IMG/VR virus record: IMGVR_UViG_3300027852_001421
DNA: 64,000 nt
Direction: 5' to 3' (one strand)
Source: a virus
Lineage: Duplodnaviria > Heunggongvirae > Uroviricota > Caudoviricetes
This document shows, one piece after another, positions 20,341-61,251 of this stretch. The notes below the pieces were generated by a model, which worked only from the letters and a program-made list of their open reading frames with translations, had not been told where the DNA came from and ran no database searches. The translations under genes and the position numbers were made by a program. Each line of letters begins with the position of its first letter. The stretch's first letter is position 1.

Positions 20341-20416
20341 TCTCCTAAATTTGGCATCCGCAGCGAGGATCGAACTCGCGTCTTCGGGGTGAGGTCCCGG
20401 TATTCTGACCAATTGA
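20341..20416 (-). tRNA. tRNA, probable tRNA-Glu (anticodon CUC) with atypical features
   Basis: Cloverleaf drawn by hand. Acceptor GTCCGCA/TGCGGAT (G1-U72 wobble), D arm GTTC-AATTGGTCA-GAAT, anticodon arm CCGGG-ACCTCAC-CCCGA (C at position 33, one C-A mismatch), T arm GCGAG-TTCGATC-CTCGC, discriminator G, encoded CCA. Total 76 nt. Confidence 0.6.
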
Positions 20417-20429
20417 ACTATGCGGACGT

Positions 20430-20505
20430 GGTGGTGATTTTGGCATCTCCTACGAGTCTCGAACTCGTTTCTGCTGCTTGAAAGGCGACTGTTCTAACCG
20501 GGTGA
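20430..20505 (-). tRNA. tRNA-Glu (anticodon UUC)
   Basis: Acceptor GTCTCCT/AGGAGAT (again G1-U72), D arm GTTC-ACCCGGTTA-GAAC, anticodon arm GTCGC-CTTTCAA-GCAGC, T arm ACGAG-TTCGAGA-CTCGT, G73, CCA. Same architecture as the neighbouring tRNA, 13 nt apart. Confidence 0.6.
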
Positions 20506-20525
20506 ACTAAGGAGACGTAAGGGCA

Positions 20526-21945: not shown

Positions 21946-23223
21946 TCAAGGACAGGGGGCCTCCACGTCTAGGGCTGTCCGTAGGGTGATCTCAACATTC
22001 TCGCGGCAGGGCCCTTCTGATTTGATCTTGAGATCATGCCCGCAAAGACCTGCGATGACCTCGGCGAGGTTCTCGCTGCTAATCTCTGAGACAAAAGGCC
22101 CCTCCCCCATATCCATCACCGAGATCTCGATATTATCGCCCAGCTGATCAAGGCAAGTGACCCCCAGGCCATGATCAATGTCTACGCCCTGCCCTGCGCT
22201 GCGCGCGAGATCGGCCGAGATGATGCGGTCCAACTCTCTGAGATCCAAGGGCGCGTAGCGGATGGCGTCCTGCCATTCGTTTGGCCTGTTGGTGCGGTCG
22301 ATCACCTCGGTGCCAGGCAAGGGTGTCGTTCCGCGGTCGAGCGGGAACGGCCCTGCCCCGTGCCGCGTGGCATAGGCGCGGGTCATGTAGATGATCTCTA
22401 GATCCGTGATCCCGGCGTTTCGGGCGATTTCCACCATGTTCTTGGCGCCCGTATGAGACCGCGTCACATGAGGAAAGACCCCGAGATCCATATCGAGCTG
22501 CAAACCTTGAGCGCCTTCGAAAACCACCGCATCGCGATCGCACAAGGCATCATCCGACATGAGGGAGACAACAGCCCTATATCTGTGCAGATCTTTTGCA
22601 AACCGGCCAGTGAAGCCCGATACATCGCTCAGAACAGGCTTCAGGTGATCTGGGATATCTGTAAGCCCCAAGGCTGCCAGCCGCGCGGGCACCCAGACCG
22701 AGGCGATCTCTCTCAGGCGTGACATCAGGTCTGGCGAGGTAAGGTCCTGCATGGTGAGAGAAGGGCCATTCTCTTGGCGCTCGAGGGTTTCCCCAAACCC
22801 CAGGCCGCAAGAGCCATGTTTATCACCACCGCGGGCAATTTCAGCGGCTTGATTGATGGCCATGTCCCAAGGTGTGGTGATTGGCGAGCGTGGATCGGCT
22901 GTGATTTGCAGATCTCGAACGCCTTTGCGCGCGAGATCCTCCAGCTCCGAAAAGAAGACCATTGGATGGGAGACAAAGAAGCGCGACAGATGCGTGGCCG
23001 CGCCCCGGAAGGATCCGGAGCCGATATGGTGAAATACATGGTGGCGACCGTCGCCCATGGTGACCCCGTGGCCCGCCTGTGCGCCGCCATTGGAGCGCAC
23101 CACGGTCACTTGGCGCCCCTGCTCCACAAGCTGTGCTGTAAGTGCGTCTGTGCCCAGCCCCTTACCTTCATCACCCCAGCCGGCGCCGATGATCCCATAG
23201 ACTTTGCGGATGTCATTTCCCAT
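21946..23223 (-). CDS. adenylosuccinate synthetase (PurA)-family protein, divergent paralog
   Basis: IIGAGWGDEGKGLGTD (PurA P-loop GDEGKGK with the last K replaced by L), GGAQAGHGV (the GGNNAGHT region), VVFEGAQGLQLDMDLGVFPHVTRSHT (the FEGAQG..D.D.GTYP.VTSS region). Confidence 0.7.
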   Translation of the reverse strand: MGNDIRKVYGIIGAGWGDEGKGLGTDALTAQLVEQGRQVTVVRSNGGAQAGHGVTMGDGRHHVFHHIGSGSFRGAATHLSRFFVSHPMVFFSELEDLARKGVRDLQITADPRSPITTPWDMAINQAAEIARGGDKHGSCGLGFGETLERQENGPSLTMQDLTSPDLMSRLREIASVWVPARLAALGLTDIPDHLKPVLSDVSGFTGRFAKDLHRYRAVVSLMSDDALCDRDAVVFEGAQGLQLDMDLGVFPHVTRSHTGAKNMVEIARNAGITDLEIIYMTRAYATRHGAGPFPLDRGTTPLPGTEVIDRTNRPNEWQDAIRYAPLDLRELDRIISADLARSAGQGVDIDHGLGVTCLDQLGDNIEISVMDMGEGPFVSEISSENLAEVIAGLCGHDLKIKSEGPCRENVEITLRTALDVEAPCP

Positions 23224-33527: not shown

Positions 33528-33969
33528 AATAAAATATGATGATGTATTGTGTTTGCGAAAATCACTATCTATCTAGGTGGTATCAGAGAGGCCCCGGAGC
33601 TCGTAAGAAGAGTCCCGGTCTTTAAAACCGGTTGTCTGGGGGCGGAGCCCAGCGGGGTCACCATCTGAACCGTACTGCGAAAAATGTGGATTGACCTCTT
33701 TACAGTAGATCAAGCATCCCTATATTCAAATCACGATGAACAGAACCCCCCTGCCCCATGCAGGTCACTTGAAAGGACAGATCATGAGCAAGGATTAAAC
33801 CAGCGTCTCACTCCGCACCAAAGACGACACGGCGCCTCCTGGCGACGATGCATATCGTGGGTTTACCCGCGAGCTGAAGACCACCGCTTCACCGTCGAGC
33901 TCCGCTCAGCAGGTTGAAGGCCTCGGTGATGATCTTCGCCTCTATTCCATTCTCAGAACAGATATCACC

Positions 33970-34305
33970 ATGTCGCAAGGCAAGGCGAATGCCCAATGTG
34001 GTCACGCCTATGTCGCAGCTGCAATCGGTGCTCTGGGCACGCCTGAAGGCGATGCCTATGCCTCTCTGAGCCCTGGAACCAAGATCTGCCTCGATGGCGG
34101 ATCTCTTCAGAAGATGCAGCTCCTGATCGAGCAGATCTCCCTGCAGGGCATTCCCTGCTTTCCCATCATCGACCGCGATCATGTGGAGCTGCCTGACTTT
34201 GATGGCTCTCCGATCCTGACGGCCATTGGCCTCGGGCCCTTCACGCGTGCCGATACGCCACGCGCTCTGCGCAAACTAAAGCTTTTTAAAGGACTTCAAG
34301 CATGA
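33970..34305 (+). CDS. peptidyl-tRNA hydrolase, PTH2 (archaeal/eukaryotic-type) family; annotated from first ATG but homology continues upstream
   Basis: MSQGKANAQCGHA matches the PTH2 GKGK(I/V)AAQC(S/A)HA catalytic region. C-terminal GLGPFT...RKLKLF matches the GIGPGP...GHLKLY end of PTH2. The in-frame upstream codons LRLYSILRTDIT align with the first beta-strand of PTH2, yet no ATG/GTG/TTG precedes them before an in-frame TAA at 33796. Confidence 0.6.
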   Translation: MSQGKANAQCGHAYVAAAIGALGTPEGDAYASLSPGTKICLDGGSLQKMQLLIEQISLQGIPCFPIIDRDHVELPDFDGSPILTAIGLGPFTRADTPRALRKLKLFKGLQA

Positions 34306-34775
34306 CCGACTTTTCCAATTGTCCCGACTGTGGCGGCTACACCCCAGAGGGCACGCCACTTTGCACGACCTGCAACAGCACCGGCCGGCGCCAGCTGACC
34401 GAGGAGCATATCGATCTGGCGATCAGTGCCAAGGAATGGGCCGACGAAGAAGTTGATCGCTTCTTCTCCGAATGGTGCCGTATCAACAGTAAGCATCACG
34501 GTTACGGTGTGGCCAGCTGGGAGATCGGCTCGAAGCTCCACATCACCCAGGACACCTCCTGCATGGGCTGCGCCAGCAGTGAGGACCACAGCTTCCCTGC
34601 TGAGTGGTTCTACGCCACCGGTGATGTGCGGACTGCGCTGATCGAAAAAGACCTCAAAGATAAACAGGCAGCTGAGCTCCAGCTTCGCAACAGCTCTCGC
34701 GTGGCCCGCATCGAGCGGCTCAAGAAAGAAGCCGCGGAGCTGGAAGCTGACATCATGAAGGGGGCCCCGGCATGA
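34302..34775 (+). CDS. zinc-ribbon-containing hypothetical protein
   Basis: ATGA overlap with pth2. N-terminal CPDCGG...CTTCNSTG. Confidence 0.55.
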   Translation: MTDFSNCPDCGGYTPEGTPLCTTCNSTGRRQLTEEHIDLAISAKEWADEEVDRFFSEWCRINSKHHGYGVASWEIGSKLHITQDTSCMGCASSEDHSFPAEWFYATGDVRTALIEKDLKDKQAAELQLRNSSRVARIERLKKEAAELEADIMKGAPA

Positions 34776-35248
34776 GAAAAGCACCCTTCCAGAACAGCCA
34801 GCAGTGGAAGATCGAGCGCGAACATTCGCGGATGAAGAGCCACTACAATCAGAAGATCATTCAGATGCGCATCGAGGGCGGCCACGGTCTGACTTGGCTG
34901 CCGCACCTCGACCCCAAGATGAGCGACAGCGATTTGTCGATCGCCTTTTACTGGCTCCTGCGCCCTTGGGATGACAGCCCGGCCGCGCGCCTTGGTCTGC
35001 TCACGCGCGCCTGCCCGCCAGGCGATAAGGATGCCTATCTCCTTCACCGCTTCCTGCTCAAGGGCTGGATCAAGGAGTTCGAACACCGCCAGCGCCGTCT
35101 CAAAGCGCGCTGGAGCGCCCCCGGTGGCGACCCGGACGCGCGCAGCCTCTGCATGCGCAACCGGGCCATCATTACCCGCCTGATTTCGATCTTGCGGGCC
35201 TCGCGACGCTATGCCGGCCAGATGGCCGACCTGGCGCACACCCTGTGA
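34772..35248 (+). CDS. hypothetical protein (158 aa)
   Basis: ATGA overlap with the upstream gene, so third gene of the operon. Confidence 0.5.
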   Translation: MRKAPFQNSQQWKIEREHSRMKSHYNQKIIQMRIEGGHGLTWLPHLDPKMSDSDLSIAFYWLLRPWDDSPAARLGLLTRACPPGDKDAYLLHRFLLKGWIKEFEHRQRRLKARWSAPGGDPDARSLCMRNRAIITRLISILRASRRYAGQMADLAHTL

Positions 35249-35306: not shown

Positions 35307-35726
35307 ATGACGACGACAGTGACAAAAGCAACATTCCCTACAGTATCTGAAGAGATGAAGGCTGCGGCAGCACGCTACCCCGATTGCCTTACGGCGATGC
35401 TGGAGCTCCAGAAGGCGACCGCCTTCAAGGGTTGGTATACGGTCTCCAACGAGGCCGACCAGTCTGCCTACTTCGCTGACAAGCTCGAGTTGAAAACAAA
35501 GGAAGACTACATCGAGATGCGCGATGCTTTGAAAGCCTGGCTGCGTCTCATGGAGACCACGCAGCGCAGCCTGAAAGAGATGACATCTCGTCCGGGGGAT
35601 CAGTCAGCACCCCAGATGCACAAACACTTCGGGGCAGGTCTGGTGACCCAGCTCATCGAGATCCGCCGCGCGGGTAAGGTTTGGTCTGCGGCTCAGGCGA
35701 AGAGCAAACTCGAAGCTGCGGCATGA
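35307..35726 (+). CDS. hypothetical protein (139 aa)
   Basis: AAAGGAAT 6 nt before ATG 35307. Confidence 0.55.
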   Translation: MTTTVTKATFPTVSEEMKAAAARYPDCLTAMLELQKATAFKGWYTVSNEADQSAYFADKLELKTKEDYIEMRDALKAWLRLMETTQRSLKEMTSRPGDQSAPQMHKHFGAGLVTQLIEIRRAGKVWSAAQAKSKLEAAA

Positions 35727-42673: not shown

Positions 42674-44008
42674 TTACAGCTCCGGCAGCGCAGGACCCTT
42701 AAGCTCGCACACCGGAGCCCCAAAGGGGTCCGCCACTGCGCTGTGATCCAAACCCACAGACCTGCCAGCTTCCGAGAAACTTGTCTGAAGTGTTTCGAGG
42801 TCTGCCTCGCTTGCTCCACGGTCCGAGAGCACCCGGCGCCAGCTTTTGCCCACCATGTGGCTCATATCATTGGCAATCTCGATCGCGCGTACCTGAGAGA
42901 CACCAAGGCTGGCGGCACCCATCACAGCATTCTCCAATGTCGCCTCCCGGCCGCAACCCGCCTTACCGAGGTGCATGAAGAGGCTGCGGCTCGTCGAGAA
43001 GCCTGTAGAAGGTGTGACGTCATAGACCGGGCTCGGCTCATAGAGCCCCTGATCGTTCAGCAGAAAGGCATGGTTCCGGTAGTGGTCATCTGTATTGCCA
43101 CATAGGACATTCATGACCATCCGCTTATAGATGGTCTCGCCAGCATCCTCCGCAGCGCCATAGCGGCGCATCCCATCATAGAGGTCCGCATAGCCGGAGG
43201 CGGCCCGGTCCATCTCATGGGCCCCGAGCAGGGTAAGGCCCGAGATCATATGACGCCGGTGGAGCTTGCCGCTCTCATCAGGCTCGCGGTCAAAGCGTTT
43301 CAGAAGCAATGTCGGACGCCCGGCCACATCAATGATGTCGCGTTCGCAAACCGCGAGGCCCGCCATCTCACACAGATCGAGGCAGCCCGCCTCGGCCGCG
43401 GCCATGGTGATGCTGTCGCTCTCGATGCCGAACTTGGCCAACCAGGGATGATCATTGATCGTCACCGTGCCCTTGGGGCGCGCGCCACCCAGATCAGCAC
43501 CGGGTGAAACGTGGTCAAGCAGGTGATCCGGCACATGGCGGCCCGTCTTGAAGGTGTCGACCATCTCCTGAAAAGCCTCGAGCGTGCCGAGATCAGAGGA
43601 GACATCGGGCAGACCCACATCGAGGATTTGACCGGGCCCTTCCGTGGTGGGGCCGAACTGCACACCGCCGATCCGCGTGCCGCGCTGGGAGACCAGGAGA
43701 TACTCGGCCTCGGAGGCATTCCGGCCCTCGGTGCGCTTCATGTAGAGATCGATGAGCTTGCGCCCCCAGGCGTCCGGAGCGGCATCGCGGATCCCGTTAA
43801 ACAGGGTGAAGTCCTCATGGGTGCGCAGATGGTCTTTGCCCAAAGGCATCTGGACGGGGTCGATGGCCACTGCGTCGGGGCGCTCGAGGTACTTGCGGCC
43901 GTAGTCGAAATCTGAGCGCGAATAACGTCCGTCTTCTGTGATTACCAAACGTCCGACCGGTACAGTTTCGCCGTGCAGTTCAAGAAATACGATTGCCTTA
44001 TGTTCCAT
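42674..44008 (-). CDS. hipA: HipA-family serine/threonine kinase toxin
   Basis: HipA N-terminal coupling domain pattern, DLGGARPKGTV, and catalytic NTDDHYRNHAFLL (NxDDHxxN loop). 444 aa. Confidence 0.8.
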   Translation of the reverse strand: MEHKAIVFLELHGETVPVGRLVITEDGRYSRSDFDYGRKYLERPDAVAIDPVQMPLGKDHLRTHEDFTLFNGIRDAAPDAWGRKLIDLYMKRTEGRNASEAEYLLVSQRGTRIGGVQFGPTTEGPGQILDVGLPDVSSDLGTLEAFQEMVDTFKTGRHVPDHLLDHVSPGADLGGARPKGTVTINDHPWLAKFGIESDSITMAAAEAGCLDLCEMAGLAVCERDIIDVAGRPTLLLKRFDREPDESGKLHRRHMISGLTLLGAHEMDRAASGYADLYDGMRRYGAAEDAGETIYKRMVMNVLCGNTDDHYRNHAFLLNDQGLYEPSPVYDVTPSTGFSTSRSLFMHLGKAGCGREATLENAVMGAASLGVSQVRAIEIANDMSHMVGKSWRRVLSDRGASEADLETLQTSFSEAGRSVGLDHSAVADPFGAPVCELKGPALPEL

Positions 44009-46950: not shown

Positions 46951-48102
46951 TTACCTAAAAGCGTCTCGGGATGCCTTGAAGGACGCTACCAGGGCATCAT
47001 GAACCACAGGTTCTGGCGGTGCTTCCCCCTCCTCGCAGTCTCCCCCCAAGCTCACGAGCTCTGAGAGCGCCGCAGAGCGCCCAGGACGGCCCTCAAGACC
47101 AAAGGCGCGGCGCACATCTGCCAAGGTCTCCATGGTGATCACATGGGCGCGTTTGCGGCCCTCCTCGAGGATGTGGGCCACCAACCCTTCGTCAGCTGCG
47201 GCTTCAGCGCGACGCATCCGCATCGGCGCCAACATGTCCTGCAAGATCCCGTCCAAGCGACGCTTCAGAACCATATCGCCGAGCCCGCCGGCGCGGTACT
47301 GATCCTTAAGTTCGGCGACAGCATCGCTGTCCGGATCAAATGCATCGAGCATCGCAAAGACAACATTGCCCTCGACCTTGCCAGGATCAGAGACCTTCAG
47401 GTGACCGGGATCGGTGAACATCCGCAAGACCGCCGCGCGGATCTCCTCCGGGCTGTCGCGGAGCGCGATGGCATTTCCGGCGGACTTTGACATCTTGCCC
47501 GCCCCGTCGATGCCCGGTAGGCGCGGTGCGTTGCTCTGGATCAAGGTCGGGGTGACCAGCACGTTGCGCCCCGCCATGCGGTTTACCTTTCCCGCGATCT
47601 CACTGGTGATCTCCACAAGCGGCGCCTGGTCGGCGCCCGCGGGCACAATGTCCGCGCCAAAGGCTGTGATGTCGGCCGCCTGGCTCACGGGGTAGCAAAG
47701 AAAGCCCGCCGGGGTGCCATCGCCAAAGCCGCGCTGGGCGATCTCCTCACGGATTGTGGGGATGCGCATCAGCCGCGGCACGGTGACCAGGTTCATATAG
47801 AGCATGGTCAGCTCGTTGAGTGCCGGCAGATCGGATTGACGTACGATGGTCACCCGTTCCGGGTCGATGCCGGCCGCAATGTAATCGAGCACCACCTCGC
47901 GCACATTGGCCGCCACATCAGCGGCGCGCCCGGCGTTGTCTGTCAGCGCCTGCATGTCAGCCACCAGAATGGTCACATCGTTCTTGTCCTGCAGAGCGGC
48001 GCGCGCCTGAAGGGTGCCGGCCAGATGGCCGAGATGCAGCGGACCGGTGGGCCGGTCGCCGGTGAGAATGGTTTTGCCTTCGAGGGTCGAGAGATCTTGC
48101 AT
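46951..48102 (-). CDS. trpS: tryptophan--tRNA ligase
   Basis: HIGH-type TGPLHLGHLAG and KMSKS motifs. 383 aa with a C-terminal extension of about 40 aa. Confidence 0.85.
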   Translation of the reverse strand: MQDLSTLEGKTILTGDRPTGPLHLGHLAGTLQARAALQDKNDVTILVADMQALTDNAGRAADVAANVREVVLDYIAAGIDPERVTIVRQSDLPALNELTMLYMNLVTVPRLMRIPTIREEIAQRGFGDGTPAGFLCYPVSQAADITAFGADIVPAGADQAPLVEITSEIAGKVNRMAGRNVLVTPTLIQSNAPRLPGIDGAGKMSKSAGNAIALRDSPEEIRAAVLRMFTDPGHLKVSDPGKVEGNVVFAMLDAFDPDSDAVAELKDQYRAGGLGDMVLKRRLDGILQDMLAPMRMRRAEAAADEGLVAHILEEGRKRAHVITMETLADVRRAFGLEGRPGRSAALSELVSLGGDCEEGEAPPEPVVHDALVASFKASRDAFR

Positions 48103-57866: not shown

Positions 57867-59117
57867 ATGAATGAGAACAGCCCCCAAGACCTGAATATTC
57901 CACAAGAGCAAGGCATGGACCCGCTGGACCATCGCGTGCTCGCGCGCCGCCTCGATCTCTATCACATCGAGGAAGATGCCCCGGGCATGATCTACTGGCA
58001 CTCTGCCGGCTGGCAGATCTACCGCGAGCTCGAAGACTACATCCGCGGCCGCATGCGCAGCCTGGGCTACGGCGAGGTGCGTTCGCCGCAGCTGCTGCCC
58101 CAGTCCCTCTGGGAGGCGTCAGGTCACTGGGAGAAGTTCGGCGAGAACATGTTCGCAGTGCCGGCGCGCGAGGAAGGCGGCCGGGACATGGCACTGAAGC
58201 CTATGAGCTGCCCCTGCCACCTGCAGATCTTCAACTCCGACCTGCGTTCCTGGCGTGATCTGCCGATGCGCATTGCCGAGTTCGGCCAGTGCCACCGCGA
58301 TGAGGCTTCTGGATCGATGCACGGGTTGATGCGCACCAAGGCCTTCGAGCAGGACGATGCCCATGTGATATGCGATGCCGATCAGGTCCGCGGCGAGGTG
58401 GCGCGTTTCGTTGAGCTGCTGAAGGAAGTTTATGCCGCCTTGGGTTTTGCCGATTTTGAAGTGGCGCTGTCGCTGCGCCCCGAAAAGCGTGCCGGCAATG
58501 ATGCAGATTGGGATCACGCGGAAAAGGAACTGCTGGAAGCGGCCCTCTCCTGCGGGCTCGACCCGAGGCTGCAGCTCGGCGAAGGCGCCTTCTACGGGCC
58601 CAAACTGGAGTTCGCGCTGCGCGACAAGAAAGGCCGTTCCTGGCAGTGTGGCACCATCCAGCTCGATATGGTCCTGCCGGGCCGTCTGGACGCCTCCTAT
58701 GTTGGTAAAGACGGCGCTAAACATGTGCCGGTCATGCTGCACCACGCGGTGCTGGGATCCCTGGGGCGCTTTATCGGCATCCTTCTTGAGCATTGTGAAG
58801 GCCGCCTGCCCCTTTGGTTGGCACCGGTGCAGGTGGCGGTGCTGCCAATCGGGGACGACCAGCGCGACGCCGCAGTTGCGGTCATGGATCAGCTGCGCGC
58901 GGCGGGGCTGCGCCCTGCCCTTTTTGATCAGTCCGAAGGGCTCGGCCGCCGGATCGTCATGGTCCGCGATCAGTTGATCCCGGTACAGATCGTGATTGGC
59001 AAACGGGAGGTGGAGCGCGGCGAAGTGATGCTGCAGATCGGCGGAGGCAAAGAGGCGCTGTCGTCGGCCGCGGCCATCGCGCGGCTGGATGAGCTTGCCG
59101 GGGTGCCGAAGGGGTGA
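57867..59117 (+). CDS. thrS: threonine--tRNA ligase paralog lacking the N-terminal TGS and editing domains (catalytic core plus anticodon-binding domain only)
   Basis: Begins about 20 residues before DHRVLARRLDLYHIEEDAPGMIYWH, which aligns with E. coli ThrRS from about residue 243. Class II motifs FRELE..IR, PMSCPCHLQIF, AEFGQCHRDEASGSMHGLMRTKAFEQDDAHV, GEGAFYGPKLEF and HHAVLGSLGRFIGIL all present. 416 aa versus about 640 for the full enzyme. Confidence 0.8.
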   Translation: MNENSPQDLNIPQEQGMDPLDHRVLARRLDLYHIEEDAPGMIYWHSAGWQIYRELEDYIRGRMRSLGYGEVRSPQLLPQSLWEASGHWEKFGENMFAVPAREEGGRDMALKPMSCPCHLQIFNSDLRSWRDLPMRIAEFGQCHRDEASGSMHGLMRTKAFEQDDAHVICDADQVRGEVARFVELLKEVYAALGFADFEVALSLRPEKRAGNDADWDHAEKELLEAALSCGLDPRLQLGEGAFYGPKLEFALRDKKGRSWQCGTIQLDMVLPGRLDASYVGKDGAKHVPVMLHHAVLGSLGRFIGILLEHCEGRLPLWLAPVQVAVLPIGDDQRDAAVAVMDQLRAAGLRPALFDQSEGLGRRIVMVRDQLIPVQIVIGKREVERGEVMLQIGGGKEALSSAAAIARLDELAGVPKG

Positions 59118-60396: not shown

Positions 60397-61041
60397 ATGA
60401 CCGTAAAGTCCTCCGGCCAGATGGCCTTCCCCACCTATACTGGCGCGCGCTGCTACATGATACCCTTCATCCAGGGGCGTGCTGAAAGCCTGCCTGAAGC
60501 CTATGCGGGCTATGGTGATGTGGTGGAACGCTTCGCCCTGCCCGGCCAGGAGGGCGAGTTGGGTCTCATCACCATCGACGAGAGCATGGTAGCCGCCGGC
60601 GCATCGCAGCGTGGCTACGGCGCCGGGGATCGCACGATCCATACGGAAGCCTGCCTGCGCGAAAGCCTTCTGACCTGGGGGCCGAGCTCTCCCACCTGGG
60701 GCGACGGGCCCGGCTTTGTCGAGCTGGAGCGCGAAACGCGTGTGCTGATCGCCAACTCAATTCCGGACACCTGCATGATCTGGGACCTTGATGTCGAAGA
60801 CACCACAGCGGACGGCGATCTCTCGGCGCGCGCGGCCGAGTTCCCGCGGACATCAGGGCGTATGATGGCGGCCGGTGAAGTGGTGGAAATCGGGATCTTC
60901 ACCCCGCATGAGCCAATCGCACAGGCGGAGGCTGGGCCGCGCCAGTTCTTCCGGATCGTTGGTAAAGGGGTCCACGGCCGTGAAGAATATTTCACCCGGA
61001 ATCCAGTTCTGGAGAAGCGGGTGGGTCTGGCACAGCTTTAA
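60397..61041 (+). CDS. hypothetical protein (214 aa)
   Basis: TTTTTCGCA motif 50 nt upstream. Globular composition. Confidence 0.5.
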   Translation: MTVKSSGQMAFPTYTGARCYMIPFIQGRAESLPEAYAGYGDVVERFALPGQEGELGLITIDESMVAAGASQRGYGAGDRTIHTEACLRESLLTWGPSSPTWGDGPGFVELERETRVLIANSIPDTCMIWDLDVEDTTADGDLSARAAEFPRTSGRMMAAGEVVEIGIFTPHEPIAQAEAGPRQFFRIVGKGVHGREEYFTRNPVLEKRVGLAQL

Positions 61042-61251
61042 GACATACCTCCCTCGCGGCCGTTGCGCAGGATCCGAACCTCGCGCTGATCGACTGACAT
61101 AATGAGAAGATGGCCGAGTTTGACGAAGAAGAACTCGATGCCGAGCCTTCGTAAACGAGAAAGGCCCCGACAGTGATGCCGGGGCCTATGTTTCGATCTT
61201 TGCCCAAACAGGGCGAGCCACTCTTGCCTAGTATTCAGGATTTCTCAGATT

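Follow-up and report, generated by a model that had tools for sequence, protein, structure and literature searches.

Very short open reading frames (ORFs) are linked to peptidyl-tRNA hydrolase in phage lambda, where the bar minigenes, with drop-off of short peptidyl-tRNA, are toxic decoys that act in trans on the host Pth. Dedicated tRNAs that read a stop codon in particular genes are familiar from selenocysteine and pyrrolysine decoding, in which one fixed stop (UGA or UAG) is given a special amino acid with the help of dedicated factors or hairpins (SECIS, PYLIS). The recoded crAss-like and Lak phages encode their own suppressor tRNAs, and those of their genes that hold in-frame stops, tens to hundreds of late genes recoded over their full length, can be expressed only with an active suppressor tRNA, an arrangement proposed to act as a regulatory switch (bioRxiv 10.1101/2021.08.26.457843). 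In prfB, the gene for release factor 2 (RF2), passage of an in-frame stop that closes a short ORF sets the level of the factor; the P-site tRNA slips on CUU U in a +1 frameshift at an early UGA, no dedicated tRNA takes part, and the gene senses its own product (PMC12421855). Here we describe, from computational analysis of a 64,000-nucleotide (nt) stretch of a Caudoviricetes virus record (IMGVR_UViG_3300027852_001421; hereafter the window) and of its relatives, a gene for a PTH2-type peptidyl-tRNA hydrolase that has no start codon of its own and lies behind a mini-ORF closed by an in-frame UAA. We put at roughly 0.8 the probability that a tRNA gene at 33590-33663 (anticodon UUA) and the PTH2 operon are a matched pair, PTH2 being made only by tRNA-dependent read-through of UAA 33796.

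This locus resembles each of these systems in part. As in lambda, a very short ORF is linked to a peptidyl-tRNA hydrolase, but here the hydrolase gene itself begins with the mini-ORF. As in the recoded phages, a suppressor tRNA would be encoded by the mobile element that uses it; unlike there, a single gene would be recoded, at one site within its first 2-7 codons, and the site co-evolves one-to-one with the tRNA, with three stops and apparent four-base codons used according to lineage. The locus shares with prfB a translation-factor gene whose product level would be set by passage of an in-frame stop after a short ORF, but the quantity sensed would be a separate tRNA, and feedback by PTH2 is our proposal. 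In contrast to selenocysteine decoding, all three stops are used, no downstream hairpin was found, and the acceptor and T stems are 7/5 rather than 8/5 or 9/4; the "tRNA-Pyl" labels are the software's name for a CUA anticodon. The hydrolase has the fold and the GK..AQ..HA and D..H motifs of archaeal and eukaryotic Pth2 (PF01981; PDB 2zv3, 1xty, 1q7s), from which it differs in being divergent, in its carriage on bacterial mobile elements, in a variable N-terminal extension and in the proposed recoding. Finally, megaplasmid relatives combine an enlarged tRNA loop with a four-base codon, as do sufB2, sufJ and engineered UAGN decoders (PMC7803779, PMC4238358, PMC4764823), and three of the four megaplasmid codon types begin with a stop (UAGC, UGAC, UGAA); those decoders are laboratory mutants or engineered, whereas the ones in the relatives (not in the window) would occur naturally, be conserved and have a natural target to match. 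In the literature open to full-text search, we found no description that connects a suppressor tRNA with a PTH2 gene and no earlier case of a tRNA operating a natural gene switch of this kind. Suppressor tRNAs, read-through and early stops in translation-factor genes are each familiar; the pairing of one tRNA with one site, and its frameshift counterpart, are not.

Results

PTH2 homology upstream of the first ATG

Translated in a single frame, 33736-34305 reads MNRTPLPHAGHLKGQIMSKD*TSVSL...GDDLRLYSILRTDITMSQGKANAQCGHA..., and, as the original prediction had stated, no ATG, GTG or TTG occurs in frame between the TAA at 33796-33798 and the first ATG at 33970 (33799-33969); the only near-cognate codons in frame before 33970 are CTG 33874, ATT 33949 and ATC 33964. 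Residues 47-163 of the in-frame translation of 33799-34302 match positions 2-115 of the 115-position Pfam profile PTH2 (PF01981; E 9e-13, 48.9 bits against a cut-off of 23), and both the threshold and the full-domain match are reached only when codons 5' of the first ATG are included. Given that the match begins at residue 47, the homology starts at 33937, 11 codons before ATG 33970. The same residue pairs with residue 2 of the 115-residue Pth2 of M. jannaschii (PDB 2zv3; RLYSILRTDITMSQGK vs KMVVVIRNDLGMGKGK), and the AlphaFold model, with a pLDDT of ~90 across the core, has the PTH2 fold from residue 46 on; the best 13 Foldseek matches in the PDB are all PTH2, and TM-scores to archaeal and eukaryotic Pth2 are 0.72-0.86 on target length. 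Pfam, the 2zv3 alignment and AlphaFold thus agree with the earlier contention that PTH2 homology extends 5' of the first ATG and that a start at 33970 would drop the first beta-strand. Residues 1-45 of the post-stop frame constitute an N-terminal extension that is poorly conserved and disordered or of low confidence in the model. The equivalog cut-offs of NCBIfam were missed (42.3 bits against 126 for NF003314; 29.7 against 82 for TIGR00283), and the protein belongs to a divergent PTH2 clade, with hydrolase activity as a prediction.

The codons upstream of the first ATG behave as protein-coding. Across 12 lineages the 12 codons before it carry 303, 99 and 517 substitutions at the first, second and third positions, with synonymous swaps between codon families (Arg CGN or AGR, Ser TCC or AGC, Leu CTN or TTA). 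Because they evolve as coding sequence, evidently under purifying selection at the protein level in all 12 lineages, the beta-1 strand would be translated, though it lacks a start of its own. In the alignment of related PTH2 homologues that the original prediction had proposed as a check, the relatives repeat the design of mini-ORF and stop, with beta-1 upstream of the internal Met. Gene callers use this Met (33970) as the start, and no Shine-Dalgarno (SD) sequence precedes it. In the PTH2 clade, 58 of the 150 best 50%-identity cluster representatives (P0032, P0044-P0184) are called exactly from the internal Met and so appear without beta-1, which suggests that canonical starts are often absent in this clade; N-terminal mis-annotation there is likely to be systematic.

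The mini-ORF and its stop codon

The original prediction had described a 20-codon upstream ORF ending at the TAA. Such an ORF exists, but it does not hold as a functional unit: its ATG at 33736 is unconserved, relatives having CGGCAA there, and the conserved part is its last four codons, from ATG 33784, preceded by the SD at 33772-77 (Table 1). Lineages outside the TAA clade have AAGGA, GGAGGA or AGGAG ahead of every mini-ORF, and both hexamers of the 33699-33726 promoter are kept in the alignment with relatives. We propose ATG 33784 as the true initiation site of PTH2.

In the DNA alignment of the TAA clade, the best-conserved part of the region is GAAAGGAcagatcATGnGCAAGGATTAA together with the following 20 nt. 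This 20-nt block after the TAA (33799-33818; ACCAGCGTCTCACTCCGCAC) has near-invariant nucleotides in all TAA-clade loci, the exceptions being single-base differences in L003/L011 and L007, and the rest of the N-terminal extension evolves fast. Megaplasmid relatives carry a related CCGCA(C/T) motif 14-19 nt past the recoding site, in varying frame. The block may act as a signal in the RNA; no stable hairpin was detected at it, the eight leaders that were folded show no conserved structure, and Rfam elements, T-box included, were absent apart from ordinary tRNAs. Five relatives (L017, L019, L020, L021, L026) have a conserved GC-rich hairpin and T-rich run ~20-40 nt 5' of the SD of the mini-ORF; lying between tRNA and PTH2 leader, this terminator-like hairpin may end transcription of the tRNA or serve for attenuation.

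A search of the window for other arrangements of SD, ATG, short ORF, stop and long ORF upheld only PTH2. One candidate, at ~61029-61058 on the minus strand (SD-ATG-TCT-TAA, then SCARP...), was judged to be a chance occurrence, being a low-complexity, antisense-like frame opposite a 214-residue plus-strand ORF; the SCARP frame recalls the SSCAR motif that follows the recoding site in megaplasmid PTH2 genes.

A putative suppressor tRNA upstream of PTH2

The tRNA gene lies on the same strand as PTH2, 120 nt upstream of the leader. Its acceptor stem has 7 bp and its 7-nt anticodon loop reads CU-UUA-AA, with U33 and a purine at 37; the discriminator base is A, and CCA is encoded. In an alignment of ten distinct members (A3), 97.6% of the cells of the cloverleaf are paired and 14 of the 21 pairs show compensatory changes; none of 500 shuffles was as good, and slid registers were also far worse. 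The D-loop (GUAAGAA) is shared with the nearest relatives, whose T-loops are GGCGGAG or GUCGGAG, and canonical T-loops occur in the tRNAs of L022, L023 and Phosso. Relatives' tRNAs pass curated detection, L022 with 48.4 bits in Rfam and L017, L019, L023 and L026 by default ARAGORN. Against the tRNA-Sec model the window tRNA scores 17.9 bits (gathering score 47). A search for the tRNA family in IMG/VR viral contigs gave no matches, and a scan of genome contigs for relatives returned a single distant locus.

The spacer of the promoter-like site ahead of the tRNA (Table 1) holds TGCGAAAA at 33554-33561, and the arrangement TTGnnn-N17(TGCGAAAA)-TAnnTn recurs upstream of the tRNA in L008, L017, L019, L020, L021 and L022. 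The octamer has 34 sites in the window (including 33522, 33554 and 33676; 2.95 expected, shuffle maximum 8), 23 on the plus and 11 on the minus strand, genic and intergenic, without an extended consensus. The distance from tRNA to PTH2 is ~900 nt in L001-L006, L011 and L013, where the extra DNA of the L001-type loci holds a called ORF of 184-221 residues, and ~1.1 kb in L007. In L022 and L023 the tRNA 3' end stands ~20-35 nt before the mini-ORF ATG, which suggests that the tRNA is co-transcribed with the PTH2 leader.

Stop codons and anticodons in relatives

We compared 13 distinct tRNA/PTH2 pairs, from the window, from loci in marine metagenomes and metagenome-assembled genomes (MAGs), and from two jumbo phages. 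Common to all is the order SD, ATG, one to six sense codons, in-frame stop, and PTH2 without a start of its own. Outside the window the mini-ORFs run to 2-7 codons (ATG counted), always closed by an in-frame stop, and their peptides vary (MSKD, MRKD, MS, MTNM, MTC, MTLTN, MLMN, MTM, MIGEHF, MKY). Among distant homologues (~70% identity and lower) the TAG forms are ATG AGC TAG, ATG ACC AAT ATG TAG, ATG ACT TGC TAG, ATG TCG TAG and ATG ACC ATG TAG, and the TGA forms ATG ACT CTT ACA AAT TGA and ATG TTG ATG AAT TGA; beta-1 follows 5-20 codons past the stop, with no canonical start between.

The stop-reading tRNA lies upstream of PTH2 on the same strand in every marine locus. With ARAGORN at default settings, a same-strand tRNA(CUA) is called 50-215 nt upstream in precisely the TAG loci, and the 80% threshold brings up the same tRNA family at all marine loci, with UUA in every TAA-clade locus. 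The stop is the complement of the anticodon in all 13 distinct pairs: UUA goes with TAA in the window and in L001-type, L007 and L008-type loci, CUA with TAG in L017, L019, L020, L023 and L026, and UCA with TGA in L021 and L022. At least three concerted switches of stop and anticodon separate close relatives; the tRNA of L021 shares its backbone with those of L017/L019/L020 and differs in anticodon as the PTH2 stop differs, and the same holds for the TAA clade. Thr-Ser just past the stop is retained by means of different Ser codons (AGC vs TCT). Two family members with an ordinary ATG, on a Pirellulales MAG and a Variovorax plasmid (L010, L030), have no such tRNA in the scanned flanks; phiM12 (L042) also has an ordinary ATG, its flank having been scanned over only ~1.6 kb.

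In the two jumbo phages PTH2 is annotated from the internal Met. A single suppressor tRNA, with anticodon UCA, has been described in Atu_ph07, where no specific target gene was named (PMC6102473); it fits the TGA that heads PTH2. In Phosso, a tRNA(CUA) whose anticodon arm is identical to that of the marine tRNAs is the only suppressor annotated in the three 50-kb stretches examined (main tRNA cluster included), and it sits 270 kb from a PTH2 whose stop is TAG. The match of stop and anticodon is thus independent of gene adjacency.

A possible frameshift version on megaplasmids

One metagenomic locus and megaplasmids of Pseudomonas (pMPPla107, pBASL58), Vibrio, Bosea and Rhizobium, 0.7-1.3 Mb in size, have a mini-ORF with an SD, and their PTH2 frame is shifted by +1 against it. 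Just upstream of PTH2, in all except Rhizobium, is a tRNA whose anticodon arm exceeds the normal length by 2 nt, which could reflect either a 9-nt loop or one more, weak closing pair; for Rhizobium pRlX5 no cognate tRNA was found within 5 kb. The loop and the mRNA pair over four bases: GCUA with UAG-C in three Pseudomonas plasmids and Vibrio, GUCA with UGA-C in pBASL58, UUCA with UGA-A in L025, and AAUG with C-AUU in two Bosea plasmids. In every case the four-base codon sits at the end of the mini-ORF, and reading it would shift the ribosome into the PTH2 frame. Candidate decoders are found in L025, L029/L036 (Vibrio), L031 (pMPPla107), L034, L035 (pBASL58), L038 and L032/L037 (Bosea); the tRNA of L034 has a long variable arm, and others have type-I bodies with the same loop. 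These matches, otherwise hard to explain, are suggestive of natural four-base (+1) decoders.

Operon and element context

The ATGA overlaps that the original prediction had noted lie at 34302 and 34772, and its zinc-ribbon protein corresponds to the Cys-rich 157-residue product. Homologues of the Cys-rich protein follow PTH2 in L007, L008, L021, L026 and L023. The products of 34772-35248 and 35307-35726 share ~35% identity over 70 residues with each other's orthologues; the latter, helical protein is constant downstream, proteins of 190 and 219 residues recur upstream of PTH2, and we found no recognisable family for any of these three neighbours.

The original prediction had spoken of a PTH2 in a bacterium. 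The family assignment stood; the gene is apparently on a giant mobile element that has tRNAs of its own as well as a TrpRS and a truncated ThrRS. The ThrRS of the window has no N-terminal editing region, the PurA (adenylosuccinate-synthetase)-like gene is divergent, an RTX protein is also encoded, and most ORFs have no family match. The window appears to be one section of such an element; the contigs of relatives measure 375-656 kb. L017, L020 and L022 likewise have a TrpRS-type gene (tRNA-synt_1b), at 2-3 kb from the cassette, and the enzyme could be a candidate for charging the suppressor tRNA.

Table 1. Features of the PTH2 locus, of the rest of the window and of the two jumbo-phage loci.
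Feature	Coordinates	Strand	Basis or remarks
Promoter-like site of the tRNA: TTGTGT, 17-nt spacer, TATCTA	33547..33575	+	read by eye; consensus scan made no call
tRNA gene, anticodon UUA (ochre suppressor)	33590..33663	+	74 nt; ARAGORN at 80% threshold
Sigma-70-like promoter of the PTH2 operon: TTTACA, 16-nt spacer, TATATT	33699..33726	+	consensus scan, 10/12 matches
SD, AAAGGA	33772..33777	+	6 nt 5' of ATG 33784; invariant across TAA-clade loci
Mini-ORF ATG AGC AAG GAT TAA (MSKD-stop)	33784..33798	+	ATG NGC AAG GAT TAA kept in 14 loci
In-frame UAA, proposed recoding site for tRNA(UUA)	33796..33798	+	stop/anticodon match, 13/13 pairs
PTH2 reading frame	33799..34305	+	168 codons + TGA; Pfam, PDB alignment, AlphaFold/Foldseek, homologues
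Beta-strand 1 (LRLYSILR)	33934..33957	+	residues 46-53, DSSP on AlphaFold model; wholly 5' of first ATG
Internal Met of D-x-x-M-x-x-GK motif	33970..33972	+	invariant column, alignment A2; matches archaeal Pth2 internal Met
Cys-rich (zinc-ribbon-like) 157-residue protein	34302..34775	+	ATG overlaps PTH2 stop (ATGA); weak DZR_2 match only
158-residue protein	34772..35248	+	ATGA overlap; distant paralogue of 35307..35726 gene
139-residue all-helical protein	35307..35726	+	most constant PTH2 partner in alphaproteobacterial-type loci
Two tRNA-Glu	20352-20516	-	
PurA-like	21946-23220	-	
HipA kinase	42674-44005	-	
TrpRS	46951-48099	-	
ThrRS	57867-59114	+	
PTH2 of Atu_ph07 (L040, MF403008)	~198.9 kb		SD, ATG ATT GGC GAA CAC TTT TGA, then PTH2
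PTH2 and tRNA of Phosso (L041/L045, PV764938)	PTH2 176.6 kb; tRNA 446731-446806		SD, ATG AAG TAT TAG, then PTH2

Discussion

The anatomy of the locus, its conservation and the co-variation of stop and anticodon are observed. Stop-codon read-through had been one option of the original prediction, in which the cognate ochre-suppressor tRNA was overlooked; that this tRNA co-varies with the stop supports it, and we infer that the suppressor becomes charged and decodes this codon on the ribosome. Ribosomes would load at the SD at 33772-77, initiate at AUG 33784 and decode three sense codons before reaching UAA 33796, where release factors and charged suppressor tRNA would compete. With the charged ochre suppressor present, an amino acid X would be inserted to give a protein of ~173 residues (MSKD-X-TSVSL...) with the complete PTH2 fold; with the tRNA absent or uncharged, release factors would stop synthesis at the tetrapeptide and, for want of a start codon in the PTH2 frame, no hydrolase would be made. 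The level of PTH2 would in this way report the decoding activity of the suppressor tRNA. The ATGA overlaps make it probable that translation of the two genes after PTH2 is coupled to it and gated with it. Placing the site in the first 2-7 codons would keep wasted synthesis minimal and would exploit the inefficiency of termination after very short nascent chains.

Four other accounts of the locus were weighed. Translation might begin past the stop at a non-canonical codon such as CTG 33874 or ATT 33949, as the original prediction offered, or by re-initiation, the mini-ORF being a mere leader and the tRNA unrelated to decoding. Near-cognate codons do lie in frame, termination-reinitiation is established in bacteria, and TAA-clade relatives have a TTG at the position of 33838, from which close homologues (88-90% identity) are called; but the TTG is absent from the window, which has CCT there without an SD, and we rejected this position as the true start. 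The candidate codons are unconserved (the gap of L019 holds only ATC and ATA), no SD precedes any of them, and such a start would leave unaccounted for the constant in-frame placement of the mini-ORF, the retention of Thr-Ser after the stop despite the change of Ser codon from AGC to TCT, and the 13/13 tracking of stop by anticodon, which includes a tRNA 270 kb away. We hold initiation past the stop to be very unlikely. A product of 111 residues made from ATG 33970 has in its favour that gene callers annotate this start in many relatives, but the Met is invariant inside the fold and has no SD, the truncated form would lose beta-1, and the upstream codons are under purifying selection, which also speaks against a decaying pseudogene. 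The sequencing or assembly error that had been raised as a further option, like the pseudogene, is excluded by the occurrence of the same stop-containing architecture in >20 independent assemblies, with all three stop codons and in several lineages, 14 of the loci belonging to the TAA clade; we consider this group of explanations the least probable of the four.

The two remaining accounts, both very unlikely and the second slightly more so, give the tRNA another part. Near-cognate host tRNAs might read through the stop whenever termination is impaired, making the leader a release-factor sensor and leaving the suppressor some other role. The early in-frame stop does resemble the logic of prfB, and very short ORFs terminate inefficiently, as the minigene literature records; yet a sensor of release factors needs neither a stop equal to the co-resident anticodon nor concerted TAA/TAG/TGA switches, and it leaves the four-base-complementary frameshift version without a reason. 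Alternatively, a tRNA-like RNA might pair with the leader as in a T-box, with the stop codon as specifier, and control transcription or mRNA structure instead of being decoded. Anticodon-codon complementarity is indeed all that is strictly shown, and terminator-like hairpins stand just 5' of the SD in several relatives. Pairing of this kind, however, would leave PTH2 without a start codon, the in-frame SD-ATG without a use and the exact frames (0 with triplet anticodons, +1 with four-base loops) without an explanation, and no T-box or other Rfam element and no conserved leader structure was found.

Several observations weigh against tRNA-dependent read-through of UAA 33796. UAA is recognised by both release factors, so that suppression may be inefficient, and no read-through-stimulating or SECIS-like structure was found 3' of the stop (z from -0.9 to +1.1 across the eight leader folds). 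The window tRNA has an atypical body, with the D-loop GUAAGAA and T-loop GGCGGAG in place of the G18G19 and T-psi-C consensus; its minimum-free-energy fold gives no clean cloverleaf, and because of these unusual loops it goes undetected by default ARAGORN and by the Rfam tRNA models (RF00005 gathering score), so that its fitness for EF-Tu and the ribosome is unproven. The 45-codon stretch from the stop to beta-1 shows no third-position bias, and L001-type relatives, unlike the window, have an in-frame TTG, with the tRNA ~900 nt from PTH2. Finally, XacN1 carries CUA suppressors (PMC5852040), yet its PTH2 has a normal ATG. The PTH2s of XacN1, Xoo-sp13, RsoM2USA, RAS14 and SCTP-2 are more canonical and have ordinary ATG starts, on which an extension of the device to all suppressor-bearing jumbo phages fails; given that canonical PTH2s start normally, the device would be limited to one PTH2 clade, with some orphan suppressors left unexplained.

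If PTH2 is gated by its tRNA, the same enzyme is gated in all lineages and in both decoding modes, which suggests a functional tie between hydrolase and tRNA. The purpose that we favour, as a tentative one, is a feedback or feed-forward link: the hydrolase would recycle the suppressor tRNA in its peptidyl or aminoacyl form or keep it in check, much as RF2 governs its own production at an early UGA in frame. Short peptidyl-suppressor-tRNA lost from the ribosome at UAA 33796 might be recovered in this way, or the charged pool of a potentially harmful suppressor kept low. A broader idea is that large mobile elements with tRNA sets of their own, among them jumbo phages, megaplasmids and the element of the window, share a two-part device, in which a non-standard decoder tRNA, either a nonsense suppressor or, in some lineages, a natural four-base (+1) decoder, is matched to the first codons of PTH2 and the hydrolase acts back on the tRNA; it is possible and is put forward with similar reserve.

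The PTH2 genes of this clade would then be widely mis-annotated as N-terminally truncated, and at least some lone phage suppressor tRNAs, such as that of Atu_ph07, would have a concrete target. The matched natural tRNA/codon pairs, candidate four-base decoders included, could serve genetic-code expansion. If true, the window would hold a natural case of gene control by a dedicated suppressor tRNA, a kind of switch for which most known examples come from synthetic biology; were both the device and the feedback real, the megaplasmid tRNAs would be the first natural tRNAs for quadruplet decoding whose physiological target is defined, and the recycling of peptidyl-tRNA would be tied, in a directly testable way, to non-standard decoding.

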